Source: a virus
Direction: 5' to 3' (one strand)
Virus record (IMG/VR): IMGVR_UViG_3300021141_000706
Length of the DNA: 64,000 nucleotides
Within the stretch, counting starts at the first letter, position 1, and each line of letters begins with the position of its first letter. The notes beneath the pieces are model-generated. The model made no database searches, was not told the origin of the DNA, and saw nothing but the letters and a program-made list of their open reading frames with translations. The position numbers and the translations under genes are program-made. Positions 5,462 to 29,686 of the stretch are shown here, one piece after another.

Positions 5462-5539
5462 ATGACAACAATTACTAACATAGCGTATTATTATGAGGGA
5501 GAGCGTGGCTCAAACGTCAGACTAATGTCTATGTCGTAA
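5462..5539 (+). CDS. Attenuator leader peptide 1 (MTTITNIAYYYEGERGSNVRLMSMS), Tyr/Glu-sensing
   Basis: 25 codons with TAT TAT TAT GAG GGA GAG; contains gtcagact complementary to the terminator arm; Tyr/Glu tRNAs downstream. Confidence 0.8.
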   Translation: MTTITNIAYYYEGERGSNVRLMSMS

Positions 5540-5561
5540 TGGAATCATTATGATATTAACT

Positions 5562-5594
5562 AACCCAGTCTGACTTATCAGACTGGGTTTTTTG
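5562..5594 (+). terminator. Attenuator terminator 1
   Basis: aacccagtctga-ctta-tcagactgggtt plus T-tract. Confidence 0.85.
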
Positions 5595-5608
5595 TTTTAA
5601 ATTAAATT

Positions 5609-5699
5609 GGGAGTGTAACGTCAGCGGCATGTAAGCCGCCCCTCGTAAATATATGGCGTATGGCTTGAGGTAACTAGTGTTCGAATCCTGGTACTCCCA
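5609..5699 (+). ncRNA. Non-canonical tRNA-like RNA (Tyr-like GTA in a 6-nt loop, no clear D arm)
   Basis: Acceptor gggagtg/tactccc, TTCGAAT T-loop with bulged stem, gcggc-atgtaa-gccgc hairpin. Confidence 0.55.
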
Positions 5700-5705
5700 C
5701 AAAAT

Positions 5706-5777
5706 GGTCCTGTCGACTAATGGTCAGGTCAACACCCTTTCAAGGTGTAGATGCGGGTTCGATCCCCGTCGGGACTA
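5706..5777 (+). tRNA. tRNA-Glu(TTC)
   Basis: acacc-ctTTCaa-ggtgt; cloverleaf. Confidence 0.92.
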
Positions 5778-5784
5778 CAAATAT

Positions 5785-5867
5785 GGGAATGATGTGACAC
5801 AGGTAGTCACGCTAGTCTGTAAAACTAGTGCCTTCGGGCGTTGCGAGTTCGAGTCTCGCCATTCCCA
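5785..5867 (+). tRNA. tRNA-Tyr(GTA)
   Basis: ctagt-ctGTAaa-actag; long variable arm. Confidence 0.92.
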
Positions 5868-5885
5868 CAAAAAAATTAACAAATG

Positions 5886-5916
5886 TTTGGATAATTAAAA
5901 AATATCCTTATCTTTG
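5886..5916 (+). promoter_or_regulatory. Internal Bacteroidota-type promoter before the second Glu/Tyr tRNA pair
   Basis: TTTG(5886-89)-N19-TATCTTTG(5909-16). Confidence 0.65.
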
Positions 5917-5932
5917 TAAAAGAATAAAAAAT

Positions 5933-6004
5933 GGTCCGTTAGTGAAGCGGTTAACACGCTGCCCTTTCACGGCAGAGGCACGGGTTCGAATCCCGTACGG
6001 ACTA
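5933..6004 (+). tRNA. tRNA-Glu(TTC)
   Basis: ctgcc-ctTTCac-ggcag. Confidence 0.93.
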
Positions 6005-6010
6005 CAATAT

Positions 6011-6093
6011 TGGAAGGTGGGTGAGTGGTTAAAACCGACAGACTGTAAATCTGTTCTCGCAAGAGTACGGGGGTTCGAATCCCTCCCTTCCAA
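6011..6093 (+). tRNA. tRNA-Tyr(GTA)
   Basis: acaga-ctGTAaa-tctgt; variable arm. Confidence 0.93.
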
Positions 6094-6159
6094 CAAAAAT
6101 TAAAAATAACTAAAAAGGGAGTTAAAACTTTTTATATATACATTAATATAATTAAAACG

Positions 6160-6240
6160 ATGAAAAATTTAAATAACATATCAACAGCGAAAATAGGAGG
6201 CGGCGCGGGAGCGAATGTCACTGGCTGGATTATGTTGTAA
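6160..6240 (+). CDS. Attenuator leader peptide 2 (MKNLNNISTAKIGGGAGANVTGWIML), Gly/Ala-sensing
   Basis: GGA GGC GGC GCG GGA GCG run; tggctggatt pairs with the terminator 5' arm; Gly/Ala tRNAs downstream. Confidence 0.8.
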   Translation: MKNLNNISTAKIGGGAGANVTGWIML

Positions 6241-6263
6241 TTTTTTATCAAAAGAATTAAACG

Positions 6264-6295
6264 AAACCCAGTCAATCAAATGACTGGGTTTTTTT
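6264..6295 (+). terminator. Attenuator terminator 2
   Basis: aaacccagtca-atcaaa-tgactgggttt plus T-tract. Confidence 0.85.
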
Positions 6296-6304
6296 ATTTT
6301 ATAT

Positions 6305-6394
6305 TGGCGAATAGCAGTGGTGTCTTATACACACTATACCTGTAGCGGTAACTTGAGATAGTATCAAACGTGGGTTCGAATCCCACTTCGCCAA
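6305..6394 (+). ncRNA. Non-canonical tRNA-like RNA (possible TAT anticodon arm, no clear D arm)
   Basis: Perfect acceptor tggcgaa/ttcgcca and T arm gtggg-ttcgaat-cccac; atypical core. Confidence 0.6.
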
Positions 6395-6402
6395 CAAAAA
6401 TT

Positions 6403-6474
6403 GCGGGTATCGTATAACGGTTATTACTCCACACTTCCAATGTGGAGATCTCGGTTCGATTCCGGGTACCCGCT
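6403..6474 (+). tRNA. tRNA-Gly(TCC)
   Basis: ccaca-ctTCCaa-tgtgg; U73. Confidence 0.93.
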
Positions 6475-6484
6475 CAAAACATAT

Positions 6485-6560
6485 GGGGTTACATGTTCCA
6501 AGGCTTAGGCGAGTTTGATTTGCGATCAGACTGTGGTGGGTTCGATTCTCACTAGCTCCA
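6485..6560 (+). tRNA. tRNA-Ala(TGC)
   Basis: Loop ttTGCga; G3:U70. Confidence 0.8.
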
Positions 6561-6579
6561 CAAAAAATAAAAAACGAAT

Positions 6580-6753
6580 ATGATAGTATTCAAAAACATA
6601 ATTGATAATAAAACCTATATAATCTATAAGGCACCAAATGGTAATTGTTTAGCAATTCCATTTAGACACGATGGTCCTTCTATCCCTAAATGTGATATGA
6701 AAGAATTTGTGGTTGTAAGCTCTGAAGATGGTAGATTAGATGGGTTTTTATAA
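6580..6753 (+). CDS. Small hypothetical protein (57 aa, MIVFKNIIDNKTY...)
   Basis: Clean ORF between tRNAs; below the ORF-track cutoff. Confidence 0.55.
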   Translation: MIVFKNIIDNKTYIIYKAPNGNCLAIPFRHDGPSIPKCDMKEFVVVSSEDGRLDGFL

Positions 6754-6762
6754 TAGTAAGAT

Positions 6763-6882
6763 ATGGAAAAGAAGATAGTATTAACAGGAGAGTTTGAGTC
6801 AAGTAAAAAGAATTTGGGAAGAGACATAAGTAAAAATGGATTGGATAAATTTATTAAAAGACTTATAAAGAAGAAAAAGTAA
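6763..6882 (+). CDS. Small basic hypothetical protein (39 aa)
   Basis: MEKKIVLTGEFESSKKNLGRDISKNGLDKFIKRLIKKKK. Confidence 0.45.
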   Translation: MEKKIVLTGEFESSKKNLGRDISKNGLDKFIKRLIKKKK

Positions 6883-6887
6883 AATAA

Positions 6888-6959
6888 GCGAAAGTCGTAT
6901 AGTGGCTATTATATCGCCTTGCCAAGGCGAGGACGGGAGTTCGATTCTCCTCTTTCGCT
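6888..6959 (+). tRNA. tRNA-Gly(GCC)
   Basis: tcgcc-ttGCCaa-ggcga; U73. Confidence 0.93.
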
Positions 6960-6978
6960 CAAAAAATAATTATTATGG

Positions 6979-7347
6979 ATGAAAATATGTCCTAATTGTG
7001 AAAAGGTTGTTACCAAAAGAAATAACAAATACTGCGATGCTAAGTGTCAAGTAGAATTTGTAAATAAAGGTATCTATGAGAACATAGAAAATGGAGACAC
7101 AACTCTTTATCATAAGACATATAAAAGACATCTTATCATCAAATATGGTGAAAAATGTATGGAATGTGGTTGGGATAAAGTAAATCCATCAACAGGTAAA
7201 GTTCCAATACAATTAGAACATATAGATGGTAACTCGGATAATAATTCTTTAGATAATTTGAAATTACTTTGTCCAAATTGTCATTCACTAACACCAACAT
7301 ATGGTGCTTTGAATAAAGGAAATGGACGAAAGAATAGAAAAAGATAA
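6979..7347 (+). CDS. HNH endonuclease inside the tRNA array
   Basis: CPNC..YCDAKC, CMECG, LEHIDGNSDNNSLDNLKLLCPNCH. Confidence 0.9.
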   Translation: MKICPNCEKVVTKRNNKYCDAKCQVEFVNKGIYENIENGDTTLYHKTYKRHLIIKYGEKCMECGWDKVNPSTGKVPIQLEHIDGNSDNNSLDNLKLLCPNCHSLTPTYGALNKGNGRKNRKR

Positions 7348-7387
7348 ATGCCGGATGATCCACCGTTGAATCACGGTGCCGGCTCCA

Positions 7388-7461
7388 GGGGAATTAGCTC
7401 ATTTGGCTAGAGCGTTTGAATGGCATTCAAAAGGTGACGAGTTCGATCCTCGTATTCTCCA
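7388..7461 (+). tRNA. tRNA-Ala(GGC)
   Basis: tttga-atGGCat-tcaaa; G3:U70. Confidence 0.88.
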
Positions 7462-7466
7462 CAAAT

Positions 7467-7498
7467 AAAAAAGTCCAGTTATTTAACTGGACTTTTTT
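7467..7498. terminator. Bidirectional intrinsic terminator
   Basis: aaaaaagtccagtt/aactggactttttt between convergent units. Confidence 0.8.
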
Positions 7499-7540
7499 AT
7501 CTTAAATCAAAGACTATAATTTCTGATTCTTTTTTTAATT

Positions 7541-8527
7541 TTATCGGTTTGTCCAATATCCATTAGTACTCAACCAAGCCTTAGCCAATGTGACACCACC
7601 AGCATCTAAAGCAAATGATTGATTGAATTTTTTATTAACTAAAGTAGCAAAAGAAGCATCTGAAGTATCTGTTGATCTAAGAAATCCAACTGAAGCGGTA
7701 GTTTTACCTAAAAAATTATATCCACTTGGATATCCATATAATGGAATATTTAAAACTTCCATTACTCCATAAATATAAGGACACAAAACTGGATAATAAC
7801 CAGGAGCTGAAGAATTAGTTAAGACGAAAGTTGAAATGTCTACACCAACACTTGATGTTGATGGATCTGAGCCAGCATAATTATTCCAAAGACCACCATT
7901 AACTCTTACCCACAATAGTGATAAATCATAATTAATAGCAACATCAATCACATCACCATTGGTCCAAGTAGGAAGACTAGTACCGGATAATAGTTGTGGA
8001 GCTGTAGTTTCGACACCAGTACTAAAATAAAGTTGACCAAAATCTGATAAGCCAATGCTACGCTCATCAGCACCGCCCGGATAACCACCAAAAGGCCCTG
8101 AATAATCCATATCTGTTAACCCAATGCCAATAAAACGACCACCAGCACCAACAGTTGACTGTGTTGAAGTAAATTTAACACTAAACATTACTTTATCACC
8201 GTCAGAAATAATAGTTTGTCCTAATACTGATTGTTGATATGAAAATATTTGAGTAGCTGTTTGATTGTTATTACTTAAAACAATATCAGTTGCCTTATAA
8301 GTTGTGCTTAAAAAAAGATTATCACCAGGAACAGGAGTTGGTTGATTATCCAAAGGAACAGGTTTAGCTATTAGCCATCCACTGCCTTCTCCAGGTCCAT
8401 TCCACCATTCTAATCCAGTAGATTCAAATCCAGCTGTTGGTGTCCCAACTGCTAAATCTCCTACTTGAGTTGTTCCGGCTATTGGTGCTCCGGTGTTGTA
8501 TGCGAACGGTCTACTTCCTACTGCCAT
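7541..8527 (-). CDS. Putative virion protein with SPRY/B30.2-like domain
   Basis: GDVIDVAINYD..LLWVRVNG SPRY-like motif; G/T/S-rich; RPFAYNTG...WWNGP N-terminus. Confidence 0.55.
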   Translation of the reverse strand: MAVGSRPFAYNTGAPIAGTTQVGDLAVGTPTAGFESTGLEWWNGPGEGSGWLIAKPVPLDNQPTPVPGDNLFLSTTYKATDIVLSNNNQTATQIFSYQQSVLGQTIISDGDKVMFSVKFTSTQSTVGAGGRFIGIGLTDMDYSGPFGGYPGGADERSIGLSDFGQLYFSTGVETTAPQLLSGTSLPTWTNGDVIDVAINYDLSLLWVRVNGGLWNNYAGSDPSTSSVGVDISTFVLTNSSAPGYYPVLCPYIYGVMEVLNIPLYGYPSGYNFLGKTTASVGFLRSTDTSDASFATLVNKKFNQSFALDAGGVTLAKAWLSTNGYWTNR

Positions 8528-8536
8528 ATTAATTAA

Positions 8537-9407: not shown

Positions 9408-9452
9408 AGACTTATATATTAAATTTTATACCTAATAAATAATATATACTGA

Positions 9453-9785: not shown

Positions 9786-9820
9786 TCTAAACCTTTTATT
9801 ATTATTTCCATAAAAGACAT

Positions 9821-10477: not shown

Positions 10478-10532
10478 TTTGTAAATATCAAATAATTCCT
10501 TATCTTTGTTAAACAAATAAAGATATACAGAA

Positions 10533-11453: not shown

Positions 11454-11469
11454 TATAAACGAAAAAACG

Positions 11470-18804: not shown

Positions 18805-18967
18805 TTTGGTAGTTTAAAAATACCTCCATATATTTGTAAAACAATTGAGAGAGGCAACGATTCAGATACAACTTTCAATTATTTTATAAAAAAATTAGGT
18901 GAAATTAAAACTTTTATCTATATTTGTATAAAATAAGTCAAAAGGAACAAAAAACTTTTAATATATA
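18805..18967 (+). promoter_or_regulatory. Stacked promoters for the large tRNA array
   Basis: TTTG(18805)-N20-TATATTTG(18829), second TATATTTG(18919), AATATATA(18960). Confidence 0.65.
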
Positions 18968-18972
18968 CTATA

Positions 18973-19083
18973 ATGAAAACAATGAATTTAAATATGAACA
19001 TGAATACACTGACAGTGGTGAATAATACGTTATGTATTAGACCGTCTGAGGGCTTCGTCATATCTAAACGATTTGTTAGTTAA
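18973..19083 (+). CDS. Attenuator leader peptide 3 (MKTMNLNMNMNTLTVVNNTLCIRPSEGFVISKRFVS)
   Basis: 22 of the first 23 residues are M/T/N/L/V/C/I/R, the set of downstream tRNAs; 13/14-nt antiterminator. Confidence 0.85.
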   Translation: MKTMNLNMNMNTLTVVNNTLCIRPSEGFVISKRFVS

Positions 19084-19111: not shown

Positions 19112-19144
19112 AAACCCTCAGACACAAAATCTGAGGGTTTTTTT
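19112..19144 (+). terminator. Attenuator terminator 3
   Basis: aaaccctcaga-cacaaaa-tctgagggttt plus T-tract. Confidence 0.88.
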
Positions 19145-19159: not shown

Positions 19160-19244
19160 CGGTAGGTACCCGAGCGGTCTTCAGGGACTAGTCTGATACA
19201 CTAGGTGAGAAATCACAACGTGGGTTCAAATCCCACCCTACCGA
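19160..19244 (+). tRNA. tRNA with Ile(GAT) anticodon and long variable arm
   Basis: ctagt-ctGATac-actag; V-arm gtga-gaaa-tcac. Confidence 0.8.
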
Positions 19245-19250
19245 CAAAAT

Positions 19251-19323
19251 GGTTTCCTCGTCCAACTGGATAGGACATCGCTCTTCTAAAGCGAGAATAT
19301 GGGTTCGAATCCCGTGGAGACTA
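19251..19323 (+). tRNA. tRNA-Arg(TCT)
   Basis: tcgct-ctTCTaa-agcga. Confidence 0.92.
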
Positions 19324-19330
19324 CAAATAT

Positions 19331-19402
19331 TCCTCGATAGCTCAGCGGTAGAGCAAACGACTGTTAATCGTTAGGTCCCAGGTTCGAATCCTGGTCGGGG
19401 AG
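19331..19402 (+). tRNA. tRNA-Asn(GTT)
   Basis: aacga-ctGTTaa-tcgtt; G73. Confidence 0.95.
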
Positions 19403-19409
19403 CAAAAAT

Positions 19410-19492
19410 GCCGAAGTGGTGGAATGGTAGACACGCTAGCCTTAGGAGCTAGTACCCGAAAGGGTGTGTGGGTTCGAGTCCCACCTTCGGTA
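19410..19492 (+). tRNA. tRNA-Leu(TAG)
   Basis: ctagc-ctTAGga-gctag; variable arm. Confidence 0.95.
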
Positions 19493-19497
19493 CAAAT

Positions 19498-19583
19498 TGA
19501 TGGGTGTCCTGAGCGGCGAAAGGACCTGGCTGTTAACCAGACGACATTAAAGTCCACCGTGGGTTCGAGTCCCACCTCATCAG
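19498..19583 (+). tRNA. tRNA with Asn(GTT) anticodon and long variable arm
   Basis: ctgg-ctGTTaa-ccag; V-arm gac-attaaa-gtc; U1:A72, G73. Confidence 0.8.
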
Positions 19584-19589
19584 CAAGAT

Positions 19590-19662
19590 AGTCCTGTAGC
19601 TCAATCGGGGGAGCGCCACTGTTACATAGTGGAGGGAGTCGGATCGTAACCGACCGGGACTA
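19590..19662 (+). tRNA. tRNA-Val(TAC)
   Basis: ccact-gtTACat-agtgg. Confidence 0.88.
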
Positions 19663-19668
19663 CAAAAT

Positions 19669-19742
19669 TGGAATATAGCTCAACTGGTTAGAGCATTCGC
19701 CTGATACGCGAAAGGTTGTAGGTTCGAGTCCTACTATTCCAA
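19669..19742 (+). tRNA. tRNA-Ile(GAT)
   Basis: ttcgc-ctGATac-gcgaa. Confidence 0.93.
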
Positions 19743-19747
19743 CAAAT

Positions 19748-19830
19748 GGTACTGTGGCCGAGTGGTGTCGAAAGACGAGAGGCACAGATCTGCAAAATCT
19801 GTCACACTGGTTCGAGCCCAGTCAGTACCT
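19748..19830 (+). tRNA. tRNA-Cys(GCA) with hairpin inserted in the D-loop
   Basis: cagat-ctGCAaa-atctg; U73; gtc-gaaa-gac in the D-loop. Confidence 0.85.
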
Positions 19831-19835
19831 CAAAC

Positions 19836-19907
19836 GCTTCTTAAGCATTAATGGTGATGCGCTAGTCTTGTAAACTAGAGAAATCGGATCGTTACCGGTA
19901 AGAAGCT
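19836..19907 (+). tRNA. tRNA-Thr(TGT)
   Basis: ctagt-ctTGTaa-actag. Confidence 0.88.
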
Positions 19908-19912
19908 CAAAT

Positions 19913-20058
19913 CAGTAGGACCCTATATTAGGTGGTAACTTCTAGAGAAGCCACATAAAGAACTGGTCCGGGTTAAAAACCAAACTTGATTATTTGATAT
20001 TCTAGAAAATGTCATTTAGTTCGGATTGGGAAGGTGGGTTCGATTCCCACCCTACTGT
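19913..20058 (+). ncRNA. 146-nt tRNA-like RNA with a large internal domain
   Basis: Acceptor cagtagg/cctactg and T arm gtggg-ttcgatt-cccac enclosing about 115 nt. Confidence 0.6.
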
Positions 20059-20064
20059 CAAAAT

Positions 20065-20136
20065 TGCCTTGTAGCTCAATGGGAGAGCACTTCCTTGACA
20101 TGGAAGAGGTAGTGGGATCGTTACCCACCAAGGCAA
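20065..20136 (+). tRNA. tRNA-Val(GAC)
   Basis: cttcc-ttGACat-ggaag. Confidence 0.9.
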
Positions 20137-20156
20137 CAAAATAATGGATGGTGATT

Positions 20157-20241
20157 AAGAGTGTTACTTCGTGAAATGGTATACACATTTGTCTTAAAAA
20201 CAAACTTTTGAAGGTTCAAGTCCTTCAGTAAAATCACTCTT
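20157..20241 (+). pseudogene. Aberrant tRNA-Leu(TAA)-like RNA with extended acceptor helix and no V-arm
   Basis: Leu-type D arm gtgaaatggtatacac, tttgt-ctTAAaa-acaaa, T arm; aagagtg/cactctt extension. Confidence 0.5.
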
Positions 20242-20261
20242 TAGACTTTCCTCCATTATAT

Positions 20262-20345
20262 GCCGATGTGGCTCAGTGGCGACAGCACTGGTTTTGTAAA
20301 CCAGAGACGAATAGTCCAACGGGGGTTCGAGTCCCTCCATCGGCT
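20262..20345 (+). tRNA. tRNA with Thr(TGT) anticodon and long variable arm
   Basis: ctggt-ttTGTaa-accag; V-arm gac-gaata-gtc; U73. Confidence 0.82.
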
Positions 20346-20360
20346 CAAAATAAATCACCT

Positions 20361-20444
20361 GCCTGGGTGGTGGAACGGTAGACACGAGGGACTTAAAATC
20401 CCTTGCCCCAAAAGGGCGTGAGGGTTCGAGTCCCTCTCCAGGTA
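20361..20444 (+). tRNA. tRNA-Leu(TAA)
   Basis: aggga-ctTAAaa-tccct. Confidence 0.95.
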
Positions 20445-20475
20445 CTGAAGTGAAACGAAAGTTCACTACAAATAT

Positions 20476-20562
20476 CGCGGGGTAGAGTAGAGGTCAAACT
20501 CACTGGGCTCATAACCCAGGGTTGCGCAAGTGACACGTCAGGTTCGAATCCTGCCCCCGCTA
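20476..20562 (+). tRNA. Initiator-type tRNA-Met(CAT) with long variable arm
   Basis: C1:U72 mismatch, ctggg-ctCATaa-cccag, V-arm gttgc-gcaa-gtgac. Confidence 0.82.
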
Positions 20563-20568
20563 CAACAA

Positions 20569-20641
20569 GCAGTTATCGTATAGTCGGTGATTACACCACC
20601 TTGGTACGGTGGAGACTCCGGTTCGACTCCGGATGATTGCT
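20569..20641 (+). tRNA. tRNA-Thr(GGT)
   Basis: ccacc-ttGGTac-ggtgg. Confidence 0.9.
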
Positions 20642-20646
20642 CAGAT

Positions 20647-20727
20647 GCCCAGATGGTGGAATGGTAGACACTCCGGTCTAAGAAGCCGGTGCCGCAAGGC
20701 GTGAGAGTTCGAGTCTCTCTTTGGGTA
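20647..20727 (+). tRNA. tRNA-Leu(AAG)
   Basis: ccggt-ctAAGaa-gccgg; Leu-type D and V arms. Confidence 0.88.
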
Positions 20728-20732
20728 CAAAT

Positions 20733-20802
20733 GCCGTGGCTTAGTGGAAAAGAGCCTACTCTCATAAGGTGGGTTAAGTGAGTTCGAACCTCATACACGG
20801 TA
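20733..20802 (+). tRNA. tRNA(CAT), elongator Met or Ile2, with shortened acceptor/D connector
   Basis: ctact-ctCATaa-ggtgg; about 3 nt missing before the D stem. Confidence 0.6.
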
Positions 20803-20807
20803 CAAAT

Positions 20808-20888
20808 GTCAGAATGGTGGAATGGTATACACACTGGTTTCAAAAGCCAGCGCCTAATGGTATGAGAGTTCAAGTCTCTCTTCTGATA
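20808..20888 (+). tRNA. tRNA-Leu(CAA)
   Basis: ctggt-ttCAAaa-gccag; variable arm. Confidence 0.9.
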
Positions 20889-20910
20889 CTCGATAAAAAA
20901 GCCAATAAAA

Positions 20911-21754: not shown

Positions 21755-21892
21755 ATGAGTACTTGTACAAGATTACAAAATAAAACCGGTATTGACCGGT
21801 TTTGGATTAGATTATTTTTCATAATCTGGTTCTTTCATACTGGATGGGCTTTACTTTGGTACATCATAATTGGACTACTAATCGAAGACTAA
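21755..21892 (+). CDS. PspC-domain-like small membrane protein (45 aa)
   Basis: KTGIDRFWIRLFFIIWFF.TG..LL.YIIIGLLI resembles the PspC TM region. Confidence 0.6.
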   Translation: MSTCTRLQNKTGIDRFWIRLFFIIWFFHTGWALLWYIIIGLLIED

Positions 21893-21934: not shown

Positions 21935-23407
21935 ATGAAAAACATCGTAACAAGAATCGCACCCTCACCAACTGGACCTTTTGCTCATATTGGTAATGTA
22001 AGAACACTATTATATAACTACTTTCTTGCTAAGAAAAGTGGTGGTAAATTCTTTGTGAGATTGGAAGACACCGACAGAGACCGTTATACGGCTTCGTTTC
22101 TAACATATTTCAAAGATATGTGTGATTGGCTTGGTATAGTACCAGATGGTTCTTATTGGAACCCAGATCCTTCTATCGGCTCTTTCACTCAATCAACAAG
22201 AGATTATTCTGATAAAGTTAAATTTTTATTAGATAACGAATTTGCTTATTATGCTTTTGATTCTAAAGATGATTTAGACTTGGCTCATAAAACAATTCCT
22301 AACTTCAAATACGATGCTACAACTCGTATGACTATGAAGAACTCATTAACAATGACTAAATCGGATGTTGATGCGGCTATTGCTACAGGTAACTATGTTA
22401 TTCGTTTTGCTGTAACTCCAGATGTTGATGTTGTAATCAACGATGCTATTTTAGGAGATATCACAATCAGTACTAATACTTTAGATGATAAAGTTTTGAT
22501 TAAGTCAAATGGTATTGGTTCTTACCACCTTTGTAATGTTTGTGACGACCACGATATGGGTGTTACTCACGTTCTTAGAGGTAACGAGTGGGTAAACTCA
22601 ACTCCTTTCCATGTTATTCTTTACAAGGCTTTTGGTTGGGATGTTCCAACATTCGCTCATCTACCTTTAATTATGAATCCAGATGGTAAAGGTAAGTTGT
22701 CTAAGAGAACTGCTATGAAGTATGGTATTCCAATTGCGCCACTTGGTTACACTGACGAAAACGGTGTTTACAATGATGGTTGGAAAGATTTAGGTTTTGA
22801 CCCAAAAGCATTTATGAACTATCTTGCCTTAATTGGTTGGAATCCAGGTGCTGAAGTTGAAATTATGTCTATGGATGATATGATTAACTCATTCTCTTTA
22901 GATAGAGTTCACAAGGCTGGGGCTCGTTTCGATATGGATAAAGCAAAGTGGATGAACTCACAATATCTTAAATTAACAGACAATAAAGACTTAATGCCTT
23001 ATGTCCATGTAGTTGATGATAGATACTCTGATGATAAGTTAGATGCTATTGTTTCATTGGCTAAAGATAGAGCTGACTTCAAAACTGACTTAAACAAAAT
23101 TGTTAAATTGTTCTTTGATTTACCAACTATCGATGATAGAAGTAAGTTAGATGATAACTATACAAAAGTTATGTCAGACTTCATCAATAAGATTGATACA
23201 ATCAACTTTGATGATACGAACTCAATCAAAGACACTATCTCAGCAATCTGTAATGATTTAGGTGTTAAGATGGGTAAAGTAATGCCTGGTTTAAGAATGG
23301 CTTTAGTATCTGGTATTGCGGGTCCGGACTTAATGACAACAATGTCAATTTTAGGTAAAGACCAAACTAAGTTGAGAATTAACAACTCGATTGTAGTAAT
23401 GGCTTAA
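21935..23407 (+). CDS. gltX: Glutamyl-tRNA synthetase
   Basis: RIAPSPTG.AHIGN, RLEDTD, DDH.MGVTHVLRG.EW, KLSKR, LRMALV. Confidence 0.95.
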   Translation: MKNIVTRIAPSPTGPFAHIGNVRTLLYNYFLAKKSGGKFFVRLEDTDRDRYTASFLTYFKDMCDWLGIVPDGSYWNPDPSIGSFTQSTRDYSDKVKFLLDNEFAYYAFDSKDDLDLAHKTIPNFKYDATTRMTMKNSLTMTKSDVDAAIATGNYVIRFAVTPDVDVVINDAILGDITISTNTLDDKVLIKSNGIGSYHLCNVCDDHDMGVTHVLRGNEWVNSTPFHVILYKAFGWDVPTFAHLPLIMNPDGKGKLSKRTAMKYGIPIAPLGYTDENGVYNDGWKDLGFDPKAFMNYLALIGWNPGAEVEIMSMDDMINSFSLDRVHKAGARFDMDKAKWMNSQYLKLTDNKDLMPYVHVVDDRYSDDKLDAIVSLAKDRADFKTDLNKIVKLFFDLPTIDDRSKLDDNYTKVMSDFINKIDTINFDDTNSIKDTISAICNDLGVKMGKVMPGLRMALVSGIAGPDLMTTMSILGKDQTKLRINNSIVVMA

Positions 23408-23410
23408 AAG

Positions 23411-23441
23411 AAAAAACCTCTGATTTCTCAGAGGTTTTTTT
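23411..23441. terminator. Bidirectional terminator
   Basis: aaaaaacctctga/tcagaggtttttt. Confidence 0.8.
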
Positions 23442-23444
23442 ATA

Positions 23445-25730
23445 TTATTCATATAGTGGGAATTTCGGAAGATATAATCTTGTAGTGGCATTATCTGCGA
23501 AGACAAGATATTTAGAATCGTCTCTAATAATATATTGATTACATATTTTATTATGTTGGTTAGCCGGAATAGTTTCCATAAATAATCTAATGTTAGTAAC
23601 TGACATATCAGAAGCAAGAATTTGACAAGTAACATTACGTTCAATTTGATAAGTGATAGGTGTGATATCTTGTGAACCTTGATAAACTTTTCTAAGTATT
23701 GTAGAGGATAAGCTAGCAGCATCATTTTCATCATCAACATTTCTCTTATAAACATGATGTTCTAGTTTTCTATTTCTTTGATCTACATTAAGAACATAGC
23801 AATACCAAACATCTTCTTCAAATGCCATATTTTGGTCTGATGGATAACCCATTAAATCATAAGTATAAGTATCTGAGTTTAATTTAACTTGAATAGCATC
23901 ATTTGATAAATCAACTTTCCAACCTAATGAGTTAGTAGCATCATAGTAATCCATGAAGTTATAAACCTCATTAGTAATATAGTTATTAATTTTAAACCAA
24001 ATTTGATATCCAATGTTATCAGATACTCTTAATAAAGGATCAAAGTTTTTATATTTAACAGCGACTTGTCCATAATCAACAGATGAAAGATCATAATGAG
24101 CTTTACTAATAATAGTTGAAGAGTTTTCAATTAATTCTTTATCAATTGTGGCTTTGTATTCTAATCTAATAGTTTCTTTTGTTAAAGGAGCAAATTGGTC
24201 CTTGTTAGCAATTGAAGCTTTATCTTGAGCATTTTCGATTCCAAATAATTCATTGATAGTAGAATTCTTAGTAAGTTGTTGTAACTTGTTTTGAATCTCT
24301 TGAGTACCAGCTTTGACATTGGCTTTCTGAGTGTATTTTTTCAGAACAAGTTTGTAGTAAATTGCTGAGTTATTAAAATTTCTAAATTGTTGAGCGTGGT
24401 CAACTTGGAACATTCTATTAACATCACAGAAATATAAGAAGTCTTCTTTAGAAGGTCTTCTCTGTGGTCCAAATATTTCCTTAAATTGTTTTTTTGTTAT
24501 ATGAACATTCATAGATTCAAAAAGACTTAAATCAAATTGATTCATTACAATTTGAGAATCTGGGAAGTTATTACCATCAACCGATACTTTAATATTACCT
24601 TCACAAACAACATTATATAATTGATATTCATGCATGGTGTGGTCTTGACCTCTTTTATCAGGATCAGTAACAAAGTAAATAACTTTATGTCCAAATACTT
24701 GTTCAGCATCAGCACTTAATTTATTCAATAAATCCATAGCTGTATTTTGTTTGTATGGGTTAAATAAATTTGCTTTATCTTGATCATTCATTTGAGGTAG
24801 CGTAGAACCAGCACCCGTTGTATCACAAGCACCACCTGAGTTTGATATACCACCACCAACTCCATTTCCAGAACCGTTTGTATTATTAGCTGGTACAAAA
24901 TTACCACTAGCATCAGTATATCCGGTTAAGTTTGATTGACAACATTCTCTAATACCATATAAATTAGTTTTGAAATAATCTTTACTTACATTTTGAAAAT
25001 CACCTATTAAGTTAATATCTTGTATTCCTACAGTAGATGATGTATTATTAGTAATAGAGTATTCAATTTGAAAAAATCTAATTGGATTAATTCTAGTTGT
25101 ACTTATGTTTTCTTTTGTGAATGGTTCCCAATTAGACCATGTTCTTGAATTATCTTGAGAGAATCTATATTTAATATCAACACCTGTAAGACTTGTCGGT
25201 GCTATTACTTCTACATCAGTTATGTCAAATACTTTATAAATAAAAGGTGCTGACCAAATTGTATTTTCACCTGGTGTTAAATTAACAGTACTAATACCGT
25301 CGCCCGCACTTTCAAACATTGTTCTTTCTAAAGTACCATTAATTGAATATTCTAATATTCTAATAGCACCAACTTGAGAAGAACCGCCTCTAACCCATTT
25401 AATATCTAAGTATAAAGGATCTCTTGGATCAACTGTGGGAAAGTTATCAATGTTTCTTTTAAGGTCTAACCAATCAGTCCAAGCATTACCATCTCTAGAA
25501 ATACGATAATAATTTTTTAAGAATCTTGTATCTGTTAAACCTAAAGTATCATATTTAAAATTGGTTAATTGACTAACATTTTGTAAATTTACAAAACTAA
25601 TTATGTATTCTGATTCAACTGTATTAAAATATGGAGTCGCATCAACAGCATTTACTGATGCGTTTATATCAAACTTATCCGATATAAGAAGAGTACCATT
25701 TTCTAAATTTGAAACTATTTGTTGAGACAT
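23445..25730 (-). CDS. Putative virion neck/head-closure-like protein with C-terminal jellyroll
   Basis: Central ..G..V.YF...F.L...ESM.VHI.K..F...PS.ED.LYF..NRMFQV segment resembles T4 gp14-type neck proteins; late motif upstream. Confidence 0.5.
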   Translation of the reverse strand: MSQQIVSNLENGTLLISDKFDINASVNAVDATPYFNTVESEYIISFVNLQNVSQLTNFKYDTLGLTDTRFLKNYYRISRDGNAWTDWLDLKRNIDNFPTVDPRDPLYLDIKWVRGGSSQVGAIRILEYSINGTLERTMFESAGDGISTVNLTPGENTIWSAPFIYKVFDITDVEVIAPTSLTGVDIKYRFSQDNSRTWSNWEPFTKENISTTRINPIRFFQIEYSITNNTSSTVGIQDINLIGDFQNVSKDYFKTNLYGIRECCQSNLTGYTDASGNFVPANNTNGSGNGVGGGISNSGGACDTTGAGSTLPQMNDQDKANLFNPYKQNTAMDLLNKLSADAEQVFGHKVIYFVTDPDKRGQDHTMHEYQLYNVVCEGNIKVSVDGNNFPDSQIVMNQFDLSLFESMNVHITKKQFKEIFGPQRRPSKEDFLYFCDVNRMFQVDHAQQFRNFNNSAIYYKLVLKKYTQKANVKAGTQEIQNKLQQLTKNSTINELFGIENAQDKASIANKDQFAPLTKETIRLEYKATIDKELIENSSTIISKAHYDLSSVDYGQVAVKYKNFDPLLRVSDNIGYQIWFKINNYITNEVYNFMDYYDATNSLGWKVDLSNDAIQVKLNSDTYTYDLMGYPSDQNMAFEEDVWYCYVLNVDQRNRKLEHHVYKRNVDDENDAASLSSTILRKVYQGSQDITPITYQIERNVTCQILASDMSVTNIRLFMETIPANQHNKICNQYIIRDDSKYLVFADNATTRLYLPKFPLYE

Positions 25731-25846
25731 AACTTATATATTAAAAAAGTAATTTCAGATATTATTTAAATTAATTCTTAATAAATTTGGATATTGTGGA
25801 TAACCTCCGTATATTTGTATATAAGTAGAAAAAAACTATAGACAAG

Positions 25847-27097
25847 ATGAACATTAAAGATAAATTTCTAGAACTAACAAGTAGAACATACCCTCACGGA
25901 ACTGAGGAAGATGTTTTTCCTTTGTTAAATTCAGAATTACAAAAAGACGAGTTTGGTAACTTATTTATCAAGATTGGTGAGAGCGATGTAATGTTTACTT
26001 CTCACTTAGATACTGCTACATCAGCACTTACTCAAGTTAATCACGTTTTTGACGGTAAGATTATCAAGACTGATGGTAAATCAATTTTAGGAGCAGATGA
26101 TAAAGCTGGTGTAACAATTATGCTTTATATGATTGAAAACAAAATACCAGGACTTTACTACTTTTTCTTAGGTGAAGAAGTTGGTTGTGTTGGTTCAAGA
26201 AAAGTTGCCAATGTTCAGAAAGACCAAAAGATTGAAGGTATCAACAAAGTAATTTCATTTGACCGTAGAGGTAATGATTCAGTTATTACTTTCCAATCTT
26301 CTCAAAGATGTTGTTCAGATGTTTTTGGTGAGGCTTTATCAAAACAATTAAACTTGGCCGATGATTCTTTCTCATACAAAAATGACCCAACTGGTATCTT
26401 AACTGACTCTGTTCAATTTATTAAAATCTATTCTGAGTGTACTAATATCTCTGTAGGTTATCGATCAGAACACACATTCTCAGAACAACAAGATATCGAA
26501 CACTTGACCAAATTGGCTGAGGCTTGTTTATTAGTTGATTGGAATGGTTTACCTGTTGATAGAGATCCTTCTAAAACTGAATACAAATCATACGGTGGTG
26601 GATACGGATGGGATGAATGGGATGATTATTACTCAGGTGGTGGTGTAGGCGCATCAAGATGGAATAATAACATCACTAAAAAATATGAGCCTAGAACTGA
26701 TAAAGTTTGGTTCCACGATAAAAAATACAACTACGTTTCTAATGTAGAGATTGATTCTTTAACTAAGAAAGTTGTATCAGTTGACTTGTGTAAAGAACGT
26801 GTTGATTATGAATCAATGATTATTAATAACTTATTAAAATCTTTAGATTTACAATACAACTCTTGTGAGTGGGATGGTTTCAAGTTGAAAGTTGATTATA
26901 AACAAGATGCTGGTAACCACACAACAGAGTGTAACCGTAACGACTTGTTAGAGTACTTACCAGAATTGGATTACTCAAAAGGTGACGACTTAGGTTCTGA
27001 TAGTTTAGATAACTACTACAACACAGTTGCTTATCAAAGAGACCAAGAACAAACAAGAGGCGAAGACTTGTACAGAGGCTACGCTGACTTTGACTAA
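25847..27097 (+). CDS. M28/M20-family zinc peptidase-like protein
   Basis: FTSHLDT, LGADDKAG, GEEVGCVGS, FDRRG, NISVGY..EH. Confidence 0.8.
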   Translation: MNIKDKFLELTSRTYPHGTEEDVFPLLNSELQKDEFGNLFIKIGESDVMFTSHLDTATSALTQVNHVFDGKIIKTDGKSILGADDKAGVTIMLYMIENKIPGLYYFFLGEEVGCVGSRKVANVQKDQKIEGINKVISFDRRGNDSVITFQSSQRCCSDVFGEALSKQLNLADDSFSYKNDPTGILTDSVQFIKIYSECTNISVGYRSEHTFSEQQDIEHLTKLAEACLLVDWNGLPVDRDPSKTEYKSYGGGYGWDEWDDYYSGGGVGASRWNNNITKKYEPRTDKVWFHDKKYNYVSNVEIDSLTKKVVSVDLCKERVDYESMIINNLLKSLDLQYNSCEWDGFKLKVDYKQDAGNHTTECNRNDLLEYLPELDYSKGDDLGSDSLDNYYNTVAYQRDQEQTRGEDLYRGYADFD

Positions 27098-27269
27098 TAT
27101 GAGCCGGGAAACCGGCTCTTTTAATATTGATTGTATGTTTACATTTATTAAAAAGAGAAAGTTAAAAAGAAAAGTCTTTAATGAGTTTAAAAAAGCTCAA
27201 ACTGAAAAAAATTATGAAAAGATTGATATCTTAGGTAAAAGATATTTAAAAATAAAATAAATAAAATCA

Positions 27270-27680
27270 TTGAATAAAGAAGTTGAAATATTAAAGATAG
27301 GTTCTATTATACCAACTGAAGGTAGAGATACTATTATGGTTGTCTTTGATGGTGGTACTATTTTTGACCACTATGTTTCTATTCTAAAAGAAAAATGTGG
27401 GGATGAATATAAATATCTAAAAACTCAACAATCTATTGTTGGAACACCAAGTGATCGTCCTGATAGATTTTCTAGATTTGATAAACCATCTAATACATTA
27501 AAAGGAATACAAAATAAAGAACCAAAGATAGGTGAGTCTTATGGTGTAGTAAATTGGTACACATCAACTGTTAATAAAATAATAGATGATAATATTCTAA
27601 TTACAAGAAATTCAGTTTATGCTATTCATGATATTTCTAAATTAAGAGATAAAATATTAAATGACTTAGGTATAAACTAA
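27270..27680 (+). CDS. Hypothetical protein
   Basis: ORF coupled to the next gene. Confidence 0.55.
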   Translation: MNKEVEILKIGSIIPTEGRDTIMVVFDGGTIFDHYVSILKEKCGDEYKYLKTQQSIVGTPSDRPDRFSRFDKPSNTLKGIQNKEPKIGESYGVVNWYTSTVNKIIDDNILITRNSVYAIHDISKLRDKILNDLGIN

Positions 27681-28060
27681 TGAAACCATTAAGAATAAGT
27701 TTTGATTTTGATTGTACGTTAGGTGAGACTATCATCCAACGTAAGGCTAGTTTATTAATAAACTCAACTGAATATTCGGATATATTTATCATCACTGCTA
27801 GATGTGAAGGTAGAAATCATAATAGAGATCTTTATTCAGTTGCTAATCGATTGAGAATACCTGATGAAAATATTTATTTCACTGAAGGTAGTTGGAAGTG
27901 GAGAAAAATAAAAGAATTAGAAATAGATATACACTTTGATGATGTTCCAGAAGAGTGTGAGTTAATATCTAAAAATACAAGTTGTATACCACTTTTAATT
28001 TGGGATGAATCTTGTAAAGATTCAATTAAACATGATTCTTTTGGTAAAGGAATTTACTGA
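27680..28060 (+). CDS. HAD-superfamily phosphatase-like protein
   Basis: SFDFDCTL, IITAR, HFDD; paralog of 39743. Confidence 0.7.
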   Translation: MKPLRISFDFDCTLGETIIQRKASLLINSTEYSDIFIITARCEGRNHNRDLYSVANRLRIPDENIYFTEGSWKWRKIKELEIDIHFDDVPEECELISKNTSCIPLLIWDESCKDSIKHDSFGKGIY

Positions 28061-28141
28061 AAAAATAATAAACTAAATTTTAATTAAGTATATAACAAGT
28101 GGTAATAATACCAAAAAATAAAAATAAACAAGAATAAAAGA

Positions 28142-28333
28142 ATGAAAACAGGAACAGTAAAGTTCTACAATGAAGCTAAAGGATTTGGTTTCATCACAGA
28201 CGAAAACGGAACGGACGTGTTTGTACACGCTACAGGACTAAACGATGAAATCAGAGAAAACGATTCAGTTAACTTTGAAGTAACAGAAGGTAAAAAAGGA
28301 TTAAGCGCAGTTAATGTAACAGTTAACTCTTAA
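28142..28333 (+). CDS. cspA: Cold-shock protein
   Basis: GTVKFYNEAKGFGFI, DVFVH, EGKKG..AVNV. Confidence 0.92.
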   Translation: MKTGTVKFYNEAKGFGFITDENGTDVFVHATGLNDEIRENDSVNFEVTEGKKGLSAVNVTVNS

Positions 28334-28356
28334 TATATTTTTAGTACTAAAGAATT

Positions 28357-28388
28357 AAAGCCCTTAGATTTTTATCTGAGGGTTTTTT
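28357..28388 (+). terminator. Intrinsic terminator after csp
   Basis: aaagcccttaga/tctgagggtttt. Confidence 0.7.
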
Positions 28389-28412
28389 GTTTTAAAAATT
28401 AATATATAATCT

Positions 28413-28781
28413 ATGAAATATTTACAATCAATAAATGAATATCAAAGAACCGTAGGATTCAGATATTCTGAACCAAAAGAATCTTATAATATTGACATAT
28501 TATTAAGAGGTGAAGATATCACTGAAGATAAAATAATCTTAGGTTTATCTAAAGTTAGTGAGTTGTTTTACGACCAAGAGTCTGTTGAAGTTAATATTCT
28601 TGATGAAGGAACTGTTGCTGAGTTAGAAGATGGTGCTGTTGAAATAGATGCTGTTGCTCATTTTAACATTACTGTTTATAATGAAAGAGAAATACTTACT
28701 ATAGTTGAAGAACTAGGTAGAAAATTAACACCTTTTAATATTGAAATATTAGATTTCAAATCAAAAGAAAATTTCAAATAA
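28413..28781 (+). CDS. Hypothetical protein (MKYLQSINEY N-terminus)
   Basis: AATATATA upstream. Confidence 0.6.
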   Translation: MKYLQSINEYQRTVGFRYSEPKESYNIDILLRGEDITEDKIILGLSKVSELFYDQESVEVNILDEGTVAELEDGAVEIDAVAHFNITVYNEREILTIVEELGRKLTPFNIEILDFKSKENFK

Positions 28782-28793
28782 AAATAAAAAATA

Positions 28794-28866
28794 TTTGACA
28801 AATTAAAACTTTGTTGTATATTTGTATAAAATAAGAACAAAAGGAAGAAATCCTTTTTAATATATA
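28794..28866 (+). promoter_or_regulatory. Host-type plus late-type promoters for leader 4
   Basis: TTTG(28794)-N19-TATATTTG(28817); AATATATA(28859). Confidence 0.65.
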
Positions 28867-28871
28867 CTGAA

Positions 28872-28970
28872 ATGAAAAACTTAAACTTAAATATCGTTAA
28901 CCCGCAACCACAAGTTGTAATCGATCAGGATCCTGATACGAAAGGGGCTAACTATGTGGTTTTAAGTTAA
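28872..28970 (+). CDS. Attenuator leader peptide 4 (MKNLNLNIVNPQPQVVIDQDPDTKGANYVVLS), Pro/Asp/Gln-rich
   Basis: PQPQ..DQDPD; ggctaact pairs with terminator arm agttagtc; Pro/Asp tRNAs downstream. Confidence 0.78.
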   Translation: MKNLNLNIVNPQPQVVIDQDPDTKGANYVVLS

Positions 28971-28994
28971 GAAAATATTTAACTATGAAACATT

Positions 28995-29027
28995 ACCCAG
29001 TTAGTCGAAAGATTAACTGGGTTTTTT
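28995..29027 (+). terminator. Attenuator terminator 4
   Basis: acccagttagtc-gaaa-gattaactgggt plus T-tract. Confidence 0.85.
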
Positions 29028-29042
29028 GTTTTTAGTAAAAAA

Positions 29043-29116
29043 CGGGTAGTGACTAAGGTTTTAAGCACGGGGGCTCTGGAGGCTTCAGTTAGTCGGTTCG
29101 ATTCCGACCTACCCGA
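29043..29116 (+). tRNA. tRNA-Pro(TGG), atypical anticodon loop (C33)
   Basis: C1:G72, A73; ggggc-tcTGGag-gcttc. Confidence 0.7.
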
Positions 29117-29159
29117 CAAAATACTCTTTAGAGAATAGAGTAAAAGAATTCTCAAATAC

Positions 29160-29232
29160 GGATGTGAGGTCAAACGGTTAAGATGTCTGCCTGTCACGCA
29201 GTTCGGAGCGGGTTCAACTCCCGTCACGTCCG
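29160..29232 (+). tRNA. tRNA-Asp(GTC)
   Basis: ctgc-ctGTCac-gcag; G73. Confidence 0.9.
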
Positions 29233-29238
29233 CAAATT

Positions 29239-29309
29239 GGTCCTGTAGTTAAACGGCTATAATGTCGCCCTGCACGGCGAAGTTCGGAGTTCGATTCTCC
29301 GTGGGACCG
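29239..29309 (+). pseudogene. tRNA-Asp-like with 6-nt anticodon loop (ctgcac)
   Basis: Asp-type body with G73; loop is one T short of ctgtcac. Confidence 0.65.
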
Positions 29310-29314
29310 CAAAA

Positions 29315-29391
29315 CGAGATGTTGGGGAGTCCGGTTACCCCGCCTGCTTTGGGAGCAGGAGAACTCGCAGGTTCGAATCCTGCCATCTCGA
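29315..29391 (+). tRNA. tRNA-Pro(TGG)
   Basis: cctgc-ttTGGga-gcagg; C1:G72. Confidence 0.93.
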
Positions 29392-29421
29392 CAAAGAAAC
29401 AAAATATTAATAAATAGAATT

Positions 29422-29472
29422 ATGAAAACAACATCACAATACCAACAACAACAAATTAATCGAACAGATTGA
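29422..29472 (+). CDS. Attenuator leader peptide 5 (MKTTSQYQQQQINRTD), Gln-sensing
   Basis: 5 CAA codons, 4 consecutive; cagattga pairs with terminator tcaatctg; tRNA-Gln x2 and glnS downstream. Confidence 0.85.
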   Translation: MKTTSQYQQQQINRTD

Positions 29473-29500
29473 TAACGGTATCGTATTGTTAAAACTTTAC

Positions 29501-29535
29501 AAACCCTATTCAATCTGATTGAATAGGGTTTTTTT
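29501..29535 (+). terminator. Attenuator terminator 5
   Basis: aaaccctattcaat-ctg-attgaatagggttt plus T-tract. Confidence 0.88.
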
Positions 29536-29537
29536 AT

Positions 29538-29609
29538 TGCTCCATAGTATATGGGTGATCATATCTGTCTTTGAAACAGATGAGCTTGGTTCGAGTCCAA
29601 GTGGAGCAA
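29538..29609 (+). tRNA. tRNA-Gln(TTG)
   Basis: tctgt-ctTTGaa-acaga; U1:A72. Confidence 0.88.
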
Positions 29610-29615
29610 CAACAA

Positions 29616-29686
29616 TGTCTCGTAGTGTAACGGCAGCACAGAAGATTTTGACTCTTCTAGTCTAGGTTCGAATCCTAGCGAGACAA
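29616..29686 (+). tRNA. tRNA-Gln(TTG)
   Basis: gaaga-ttTTGac-tcttc; U1:A72. Confidence 0.92.

Follow-up and report, generated by a model that had tools for sequence, protein, structure and literature searches.

The tRNA arrays of the IMG/VR viral record IMGVR_UViG_3300021141_000706, together with the glutaminyl-tRNA synthetase gene glnS that follows the last of them, are very probably placed behind ribosome-mediated transcription attenuators which, judging from sequence comparison, would sense decoding capacity codon by codon. The window, that is, the whole stretch of 64,000 nt that was analyzed, has a G+C content of about 30% and contains 32 tRNA genes detected by ARAGORN plus several that this program missed. 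The initial annotation, made from the sequence alone, had proposed five leader-peptide attenuators between positions 5462 and 29686. All five units are present on the + strand, and each consists of a short open reading frame (ORF) starting with ATG, an antiterminator segment, a terminator made of a hairpin and a T run, and tRNA genes (Table 1). The tRNAs behind each leader are those named in that annotation, to which tRNA-Cys (19748-19830) and tRNA-Pro (29043-29117) have to be added. The attenuator reading is supported by the way in which leaders track their arrays, by the position of the cognate residues, by complementarity specific to each leader and by the leaders found in front of synthetase genes.

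The five leaders (L1 to L5) are ORFs of 16-36 codons, with the segment complementary to the terminator lying within the ORF or at its end. L1, L3 and L4 are located downstream of Bacteroidota-type promoters, L2 follows a conserved box and L5 is nested behind unit 4. The terminators of the window have stems of 11-14 bp (-15 to -19 kcal/mol) and runs of 6-7 T, and the gap between the terminator and the first tRNA or tRNA-like gene is of 7-20 nt (about 15 nt for unit 1, where a tRNA-like RNA comes first). Across 10 related phage genomes or fragments, 44 leader units were found, and in all of them the distance from stop codon to terminator is of 20-37 nt. The last control codon had been claimed to lie 9-15 nt before the antiterminator; this has to be corrected to about 8-12 nt in L1, L2, L4 and L5, and to only 2 nt in L3.

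Under the proposed mechanism, host RNA polymerase would start at a Bacteroidota-type promoter and transcribe the short leader ORF. A ribosome that suffers no delay would cover or pass the antiterminator strand and park at the stop codon, 20-37 nt before the terminator; upon such fast reading the terminator hairpin would form and the tRNA array would stay silent. When a charged tRNA is scarce, its control codon would be read slowly, the ribosome would stall upstream, and the antiterminator strand, left free, would pair with the emerging 5′ arm of the terminator, the polymerase then reading into the array. Each leader would operate as an OR gate over the amino acids, and largely over the codons, served by the tRNAs behind it, and the newly made tRNAs would relieve the stall and close a negative feedback loop. 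The phage would probably make its tRNAs only when the matching codons are decoded slowly. Since unit 5 is nested behind unit 4 and has no separate promoter, tRNA-Gln and glnS could be expressed only if both terminators were read through. The mechanism presumes that the leaders are translated, that transcription and translation are coupled and that the two RNA structures compete kinetically; its physiological trigger could be the homeostasis of tRNA supply, the timing of infection or tRNA cleavage by defenses of the host.

Match between leader codons and tRNA arrays

The correspondence between the amino acids of each leader and the tRNAs behind it exceeds chance: the true pairing of leaders and arrays in the window ranks first of 120 permutations. 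When five genomes with 29 units were considered, none of 20000 within-genome permutations attained the observed score (sum of z 111.6, versus 6.9 ± 11.8). To locate the match within the leaders, each ORF was split at the point where its antiterminator strand begins. Upstream of this point, 279 of 550 residues are cognate, versus 108.3 expected (z 19.6); from the antiterminator onward there is no enrichment (49 of 252, versus 55.7 expected; z -1.1). Such a confinement of cognate residues is predicted by attenuation and not by an accident of composition. In L3, 21 of the 22 residues preceding the antiterminator belong to its set of eight amino acids (P = 2e-7).

The match extends to the codons. 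Of the 243 codons that specify cognate amino acids, 211 are within the decoding range of the array's own anticodons (183 expected; z 6), and the Arg codons of the leaders are AGA before Arg(tct) arrays and CGN before Arg(acg), Arg(tcg) or Arg(gcg) arrays.

Two uncultured megaphages, LR745206 (635 kb) and LR756502 (642 kb), are the closest public relatives of the window; they are among the largest known phages and were obtained from a subsurface sample and a freshwater lake; a distant megaphage relative is Mar_Mega_1 (OU342829.1) (PMC9723777). IMG/VR contigs as long as 476 kb encode a glutaminyl-tRNA synthetase (GlnRS) 93-98% identical to that of the window; in other phages (508-642 kb) and in a 108-kb fragment the identity is 70-78%, and in the closest cellular homologues, mostly from Flavobacteriia, it is 54-57%. 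Among the records compared, the one nearest to the window is a 55-kb fragment (G001); the contig G005, with a GlnRS 93% identical, was used as a proxy for the rest of the genome.

The initial annotation had staked its reading on leader composition following tRNA content in related phages, and composition does so both in homologous and in rearranged loci. It had also predicted leaders rich in Lys, Phe, His, Ser or Trp, which are indeed encountered in LR745206, LR756502, G002 and G005: each of the four carries an H/K/F/W-rich leader before a His/Phe/Trp/Lys array and an S/R-rich leader before a Ser/Arg array. The Tyr/Glu and Gly/Ala/Ile units form one fused unit in G002, whose single leader contains Y, E, G, I and A. 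Genome G003 (519 kb, with terminal repeats) has its tRNAs regrouped. There, a KKKKK leader precedes an array of Lys tRNAs alone, a leader with L, R, E and I precedes a Leu/Arg/Met/Glu/Ile array, and a leader composed of T, Y, W, P, V, M, G, A, I and D stands before an array serving 11 amino acids. The missing leader of the Phe/Ser/Asn/His/Thr array of this genome was searched for and found, spelled in T, N, S, H and F.

Leaders are also found before aminoacyl-tRNA synthetase genes. Besides glnS behind the Gln leader of the window, asnS of LR745206 lies behind an N-rich leader and a valS-like gene of G002 (L023, 6275-7804) behind a VVVV leader. At only 509 codons, this last gene corresponds to the two terminal parts, N and C, of ValRS models, and its predicted protein therefore seems to lack the editing domain. 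Inheritance of the glnS leader along with the gene from the host lineage was considered and rejected: in 66 of 66 cellular Bacteroidota glnS loci neither a terminator nor a Gln-run ORF exists upstream. A further ORF of 14 codons followed by a terminator is located at about 345.1 kb in LR745206 (L041, 187-285), with a strong upstream complementarity of -20.1 kcal/mol (p 0.003). It shows no repeated codons and precedes a gene for a small basic protein instead of tRNAs, and may be a different kind of leader.

Complementarity of leaders and terminators, and competing explanations

Complementarity between the leader and the 5′ arm of its terminator was tested against dinucleotide shuffles. It reached p < 0.05 in 29 of the 44 units (median p 0.02). 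Within the window, it is clear for L3 (p < 0.001) and L5 (p = 0.001). Control terminators of the same DNA reached p < 0.05 in 4 of 37 cases (median p 0.53), and two of these four turned out to be leader-like units themselves. Confronted with all leaders of the same genome, a terminator found its best partner in its own leader in 22 of 36 cases, versus 6 expected; the pairing therefore co-varies among paralogous units with differing stems. Three genomes retain the TGGCTG core of leader 2, although it is read in a different frame, which points to a constraint at the RNA level. Within the Gln class the antiterminator core does not vary among close homologues, and the pairing was assessed by shuffles, control terminators and cross-pairing in place of a count of covarying pairs.

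The switch was modeled by folding the growing transcript, as far as the loop of the terminator, under a ribosome mask of 31 nt. In this model, L1 and L5 form the antiterminator when the ribosome is stalled and do not form it when the ribosome is at the stop codon; L2 behaves largely as predicted, L3 and L4 only partly. A clear counterpart of the upstream 1:2 hairpin of trp, which acts as anti-antiterminator or pause signal, was not found in the leaders, and the nascent folds of L1, L3, L4 and L5 default to the antiterminator. Because of the lack of this hairpin, the default state of these four leaders when not translated would probably be read-through. L2 is the only leader of the window that folds on itself in the nascent transcript.

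Several observations weigh against the attenuator reading. Taken one by one, L1, L2 and L4 do not reach significance in their complementarity (p 0.07, 0.15 and 0.17, respectively), nor are these three the best partners of their own terminators among the leaders of the window. The antiterminator duplexes of four of the five window units (-11.5 to -13.1 kcal/mol) are weaker than the terminators (-15.9 to -19.1), and the equilibrium fold of the complete leader is always the terminator, with or without the ribosome mask. Equilibrium folding is for this reason unable to separate the two states, which is why folding of the nascent transcript was used; as the terminator is the minimum-energy fold of the complete transcript, the decision would have to be kinetic, as in other attenuators. 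In the masking model, a ribosome at the L3 stop codon leaves the antiterminator uncovered and one stalled at the last control codons would cover it, and L4 is ambiguous. To our knowledge, coupling of transcription and translation has not been established in Bacteroidota. Non-cognate residues are present in the leaders as well, the glutamyl-tRNA synthetase gene gltX of the window (21935-23407) has no Glu leader, and an internal host-type promoter (5886-5916) offers the second Glu/Tyr pair a way around leader 1, by which it may be expressed independently. Upstream of gltX there are a host-type promoter and an ORF of 45 codons encoding a hydrophobic product (21756-21892). Several control codons had been described as GC-rich; leader codons are indeed rarer and more often G/C-ending than the phage average, and this applies equally to the non-cognate ones. 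Rarity does not set the control codons apart, and the idea that rare codons mark these alone had to be rejected; rare codons may nonetheless raise the sensitivity of the leader.

Sensing of tRNA without ribosomes is known from T-box elements, and an RNA sensor of this type, in which tRNA anticodons would pair directly with leader triplets, as in a T-box with multiple specifiers, and thereby stabilize or destabilize the antiterminator, would account for an output decided by the terminator/antiterminator pair and for triplets that match the anticodons of the array. It does not account for the presence in every unit of a frame started by ATG in which the matching triplets are in phase, for the ending of this frame within 20-37 nt of the terminator, nor for a match that vanishes exactly where the antiterminator starts. 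The leaders are mostly unstructured and A-rich, with no conserved structure resembling Stem I, and neither the T-box nor another Rfam cis-regulatory family was matched even at E ≤ 5 beyond chance level. We consider such a sensor very improbable. The T-box family (RF00230) has no match in the window at the Rfam gathering threshold, nor in positions 5000-30000 at E ≤ 5, and the Rfam families of His, Thr, Trp, Leu and other peptide leaders gave none either, only tRNAs and chance-level matches being returned. The sole cis-regulatory match on a leader is that of L1 (5477-5599) with the trpB non-coding RNA motif, at chance level (28.3 bits versus a gathering score of 59; E 3.3). Matches with the small RNAs NsiR1 (5537-5597; 31.2 bits versus 39) and PhrS (minus strand) overlap a leader and are below threshold, as is the rimP leader match at 23381-23449, which lies outside the leaders.

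That the hairpins are ordinary terminators or insulators, the short ORFs untranslated chance frames and the arrays driven from other start sites is a still more remote explanation. Short ORFs do arise in numbers in AT-rich DNA, the pairing of L1, L2 and L4 falls short of significance when each is taken alone, and a conserved box consisting of a hairpin and TTAATATATAC, as well as the internal promoter, provide other signals near the arrays. Yet no promoter-like element exists between the terminators and the first tRNA (gaps of 7-20 nt in four of five units and of about 15 nt in unit 1), the amino-acid match is about 9 standard deviations beyond permutation and follows regrouped arrays in at least six lineages, and the control terminators lack upstream complementarity. 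Just as remote is the idea that the leaders are translated and act through a nascent arrest peptide, or as micro-proteins, and not as sensors of tRNA supply. The N-termini are alike (MK or MT, then T or N, then I, L or N) and there is some conservation of the peptide within classes, but the variable core is explained by the tRNAs behind the leader and changes with the array, and the C-termini, poorly conserved as peptide, are conserved as RNA complementary to the terminator, in one case in a different frame.

Organization of the arrays and upstream signals

The coordinates of the units are listed in Table 1. Within the region, tRNA-Met alone does not belong to one of the five units.

Table 1. 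Leaders, terminators, tRNA genes and upstream signals of the window (nt positions)
Feature	Position	Strand	Remarks
Hairpin + TTAATATATAC box	5260-5288, 18940-18968, 28839-28867	+	Before tRNA-Met, leader 3 and leader 4
tRNA-Met	5307-5379	+	No leader or terminator in front
Leader 1 promoter	5397-5428	+	Bacteroidota-type: TTTG, 20 nt, TATATTTG
Leader ORF 1	5462-5539	+	25 codons; putative control codons TAT x3, GAG, GGA, GAG at 5486-5503
L1 antiterminator strand	5515-5524	+	
L1 hairpin containing stop codon	5531-5556	+	
Intrinsic terminator 1	5562-5593	+	12-bp stem, -19.1 kcal/mol, T run
Array 1 (behind L1)	5609-6094	+	Tyr-like RNA ~5609-5700, Glu 5706-5778, Tyr 5785-5868, Glu 5933-6005, Tyr 6011-6094
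Hairpin + TTATATATAC box	6113-6141	+	Before leader 2
Leader ORF 2	6160-6240	+	26 codons; putative control codons ATA, GGA, GGC, GGC, GCG, GGA, GCG at 6193-6213
L2 antiterminator strand	6221-6229	+	TGGCTG core
Intrinsic terminator 2	6264-6295	+	
Array 2 (behind L2)	6305-7498	+	Ile(UAU)-like RNA 6305-6395, Gly(tcc) 6403-6475, Ala(tgc) 6485-6561, two small ORFs, Gly(gcc) 6888-6960, Ala(ggc) 7388-7462, unit-ending terminator 7470-7498
Leader 3 upstream signals	18805-18968	+	Host-type promoter 18805-18836; second TATATTTG near 18921-18928; box 18940-18968
Leader ORF 3	18973-19083	+	36 codons; codons 2-23 are Lys, then only Met, Asn, Thr, Leu, Val, Cys, Ile, Arg
L3 antiterminator strand	19043-19058	+	Duplex -22.4 kcal/mol
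Intrinsic terminator 3	19112-19144	+	
Array 3 (behind L3)	19160-20889	+	19 tRNA genes: Ile, Arg, Asn, Leu, Val, Cys, Thr, Met
Leader 4 upstream signals	28794-28867	+	Host-type promoter 28794-28824; box 28839-28867
Leader ORF 4	28872-28970	+	32 codons; putative Pro, Gln, Asp control codons at 28902-28937
L4 antiterminator strand	28945-28960	+	
Intrinsic terminator 4	28995-29027	+	
Array 4 (behind L4)	29043-29392	+	Pro(tgg) 29043-29117, Asp 29160-29233, tRNA 29239-29310, Pro(tgg) 29315-29392
Leader ORF 5	29422-29472	+	16 codons, no promoter of its own; CAA x5 at 29437-29454
L5 antiterminator strand	29464-29480	+	Overlaps stop codon
Intrinsic terminator 5	29501-29535	+	
Unit 5 output (behind L5)	29538-31419	+	tRNA-Gln 29538-29610, tRNA-Gln 29616-29687, glnS 29705-31309, terminator 31392-31419

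Some of the RNAs behind the leaders are unusual. The Tyr-like RNA that opens array 1 has an anticodon loop of 6 nt, ATGTAA, which includes GTA, and the tRNA at 29239-29310 in array 4 likewise has a 6-nt loop, CTGCAC; both keep a conserved position behind a leader terminator. The 91-nt tRNA-like RNA located directly behind terminator 2 has a conserved hairpin whose UAU loop (for the Ile codon AUA) is in an unusual position. The acceptor-stem changes that distinguish it from its homologue in G005 (L038, 3195-3275) are compensatory. In relatives, a normal tRNA-Ile(tat) occupies its place, and leader 2 contains two ATA codons. An HNH endonuclease gene (6979-7347) lies within array 2, between Gly(gcc) and Ala(ggc). 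In array 3, tRNA-Cys, which was missed by ARAGORN and scores 53.8 bits with Rfam, has a 13-nt insertion in the D-loop; the Ile, Asn, Thr and Met tRNAs at 19160-19245, 19498-19584, 20262-20346 and 20476-20562 measure 84-87 nt and have long variable arms; and a tRNA-like RNA of about 148 nt (approximately 19913-20060) has good acceptor and T arms and no anticodon assigned.

Upstream of the units, promoters matching the Bacteroidota consensus (TTTG, 19-20 nt, TAnnTTTG) are over-represented, with 5 occurrences in the window at a spacing of 19 nt versus 0.88 expected, and they are placed before the units. The host of this giant phage is probably a member of the Bacteroidota, of a Flavobacteria-like kind. 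The conserved box is formed by an AAAAGG..N..CTTTT hairpin followed by TTAATATATA(C/A). It occurs in only four copies in the window and is also found in relatives. In each case a leader ATG, or else the leaderless tRNA-Met, follows at a distance of 3-20 nt, and the arms of the hairpin co-vary, G-T pairs included. The role of the box might be that of a promoter specific to the phage, of a processing site or of an element in the 5′ untranslated region.

Cultured phages, known attenuators and significance

Units of the same design recur independently in cultured phages. Cellulophaga phage phi4:1 (NC_021788, 145 kb), which is grown on Cellulophaga baltica, carries three leader/terminator/tRNA units (L145, 2124-2245, 3048-3222 and 4830-4976). 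One of its leaders, which is unannotated and has 22 codons, contains a run of eleven codons, from CAA to CCG, that are all cognate and cover all seven tRNAs behind the terminator; another is annotated as the hypothetical gp075. Caulobacter phage Ccr29 has at least two units (L146, 5398-5544 and 7207-7364): a leader in which L, S, K, A, P and T abound, annotated as the hypothetical protein gp089, is situated before Pro/Thr/Lys/Leu/Ala/Ser tRNAs, and a leader with R, Q, F, V and I, together with its terminator, precedes Phe/Val/Ile/Gln/Arg tRNAs.

A bacterial case was found on the chromosome of Chryseobacterium sp. KCF3-3. Nineteen of its 20 tRNA loci have no upstream terminator, and an accessory array of 16 tRNAs (L123, 437-2918) is preceded by a leader-like ORF and a terminator with the same spacing as in the phage units. 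This array is flanked by a conflict system of the MoxR-vWA-beta-propeller type and by genes encoding an RNA ligase of the T4 Rnl2 type as well as RNase H-like, DinB, metallo-beta-lactamase-fold and phosphoesterase proteins. The locus may be a bacterial island combining backup tRNAs and RNA repair. With regard to a literature link between tRNA arrays and MoxR-vWA systems, tRNA is mentioned once in PMC7159879, and we claim no link.

Among known systems, the leaders trpL, hisL, leuL, thrL, pheL and that of ilvGMEDA are attenuators of enterobacteria, and multivalent sensing is known for ilv and thr. The phage units resemble them, by analogy, in having a short leader rich in control codons and mutually exclusive terminator and antiterminator structures between which the position of the ribosome would decide. 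They differ in being carried by a phage, in having tRNA genes instead of enzymes as the regulated products, in serving up to 8 amino acids per leader in the window and 11 in a relative, and in the lack of a clear 1:2 hairpin. Just as in the pheST operon of E. coli, with its pheM leader, genes of the translation apparatus are located behind leaders with cognate codons (glnS with Q, asnS with N, the valS-like gene with V), whereas the phage units open with tRNA genes and usually yield nothing else. E. coli pheV was considered as a precedent and discarded, as in MG1655 it lies directly behind its promoter, with no leader. With T-box riboswitches the units would share the sensing of charged-tRNA supply and the switching between terminator and antiterminator before aminoacyl-tRNA synthetase genes; T-boxes, however, bind tRNA directly and need no ribosome, and their Stem I, specifier loop and T-box sequence are absent from the phage leaders.

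Large accessory tRNA arrays are carried by big phages, and the dozens of tRNA genes in large phages pose a long-standing question, for which compensation of codon usage, translation during degradation of the host and escape from tRNA-cleaving defenses have been put forward. The cargo considered in the accounts based on codon-usage compensation or on replacement after anticodon-nuclease attack is like the one described here, and regulation is absent from them. Full-text literature searches found no description of leader-controlled tRNA genes. With respect to known attenuation, the features that appear to be new, as read from the genomes, are tRNA genes as output, a phage as carrier, the number of inputs per leader, and the organization of nearly the whole tRNA set of a genome in this manner.

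It is conceivable, and in our opinion somewhat unlikely, that accessory tRNA arrays in general constitute an inducible module of counter-defense or repair, provided with a codon-resolved sensor of damage and shortage, and not a constitutive compensation of codon usage. The leaders may then switch on exactly the tRNAs that replace those depleted or cut by anticodon nucleases, and this may apply to the Bacteroidota megaphages, to phi4:1, to the phiCbK-like Caulobacter phages and to at least one bacterial array. Counter-defense would be only one of the ends that such a sensor might serve, next to the homeostasis of tRNA supply and the timing of infection.

If attenuation does control these arrays, the classical mechanism would be extended to non-coding RNA outputs and to leaders with multiple inputs, up to 11 amino acids, and the leaders would offer small natural elements with which decoding capacity could be read out for each codon. 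The design is present in two cultured systems, Cellulophaga baltica with phi4:1 and Caulobacter crescentus with phiCbK-like phages. Provided that the arrays are gated by sensors of their own codons, the phage itself would report when its tRNAs are needed, and the question of what purpose these tRNAs serve would become directly testable.

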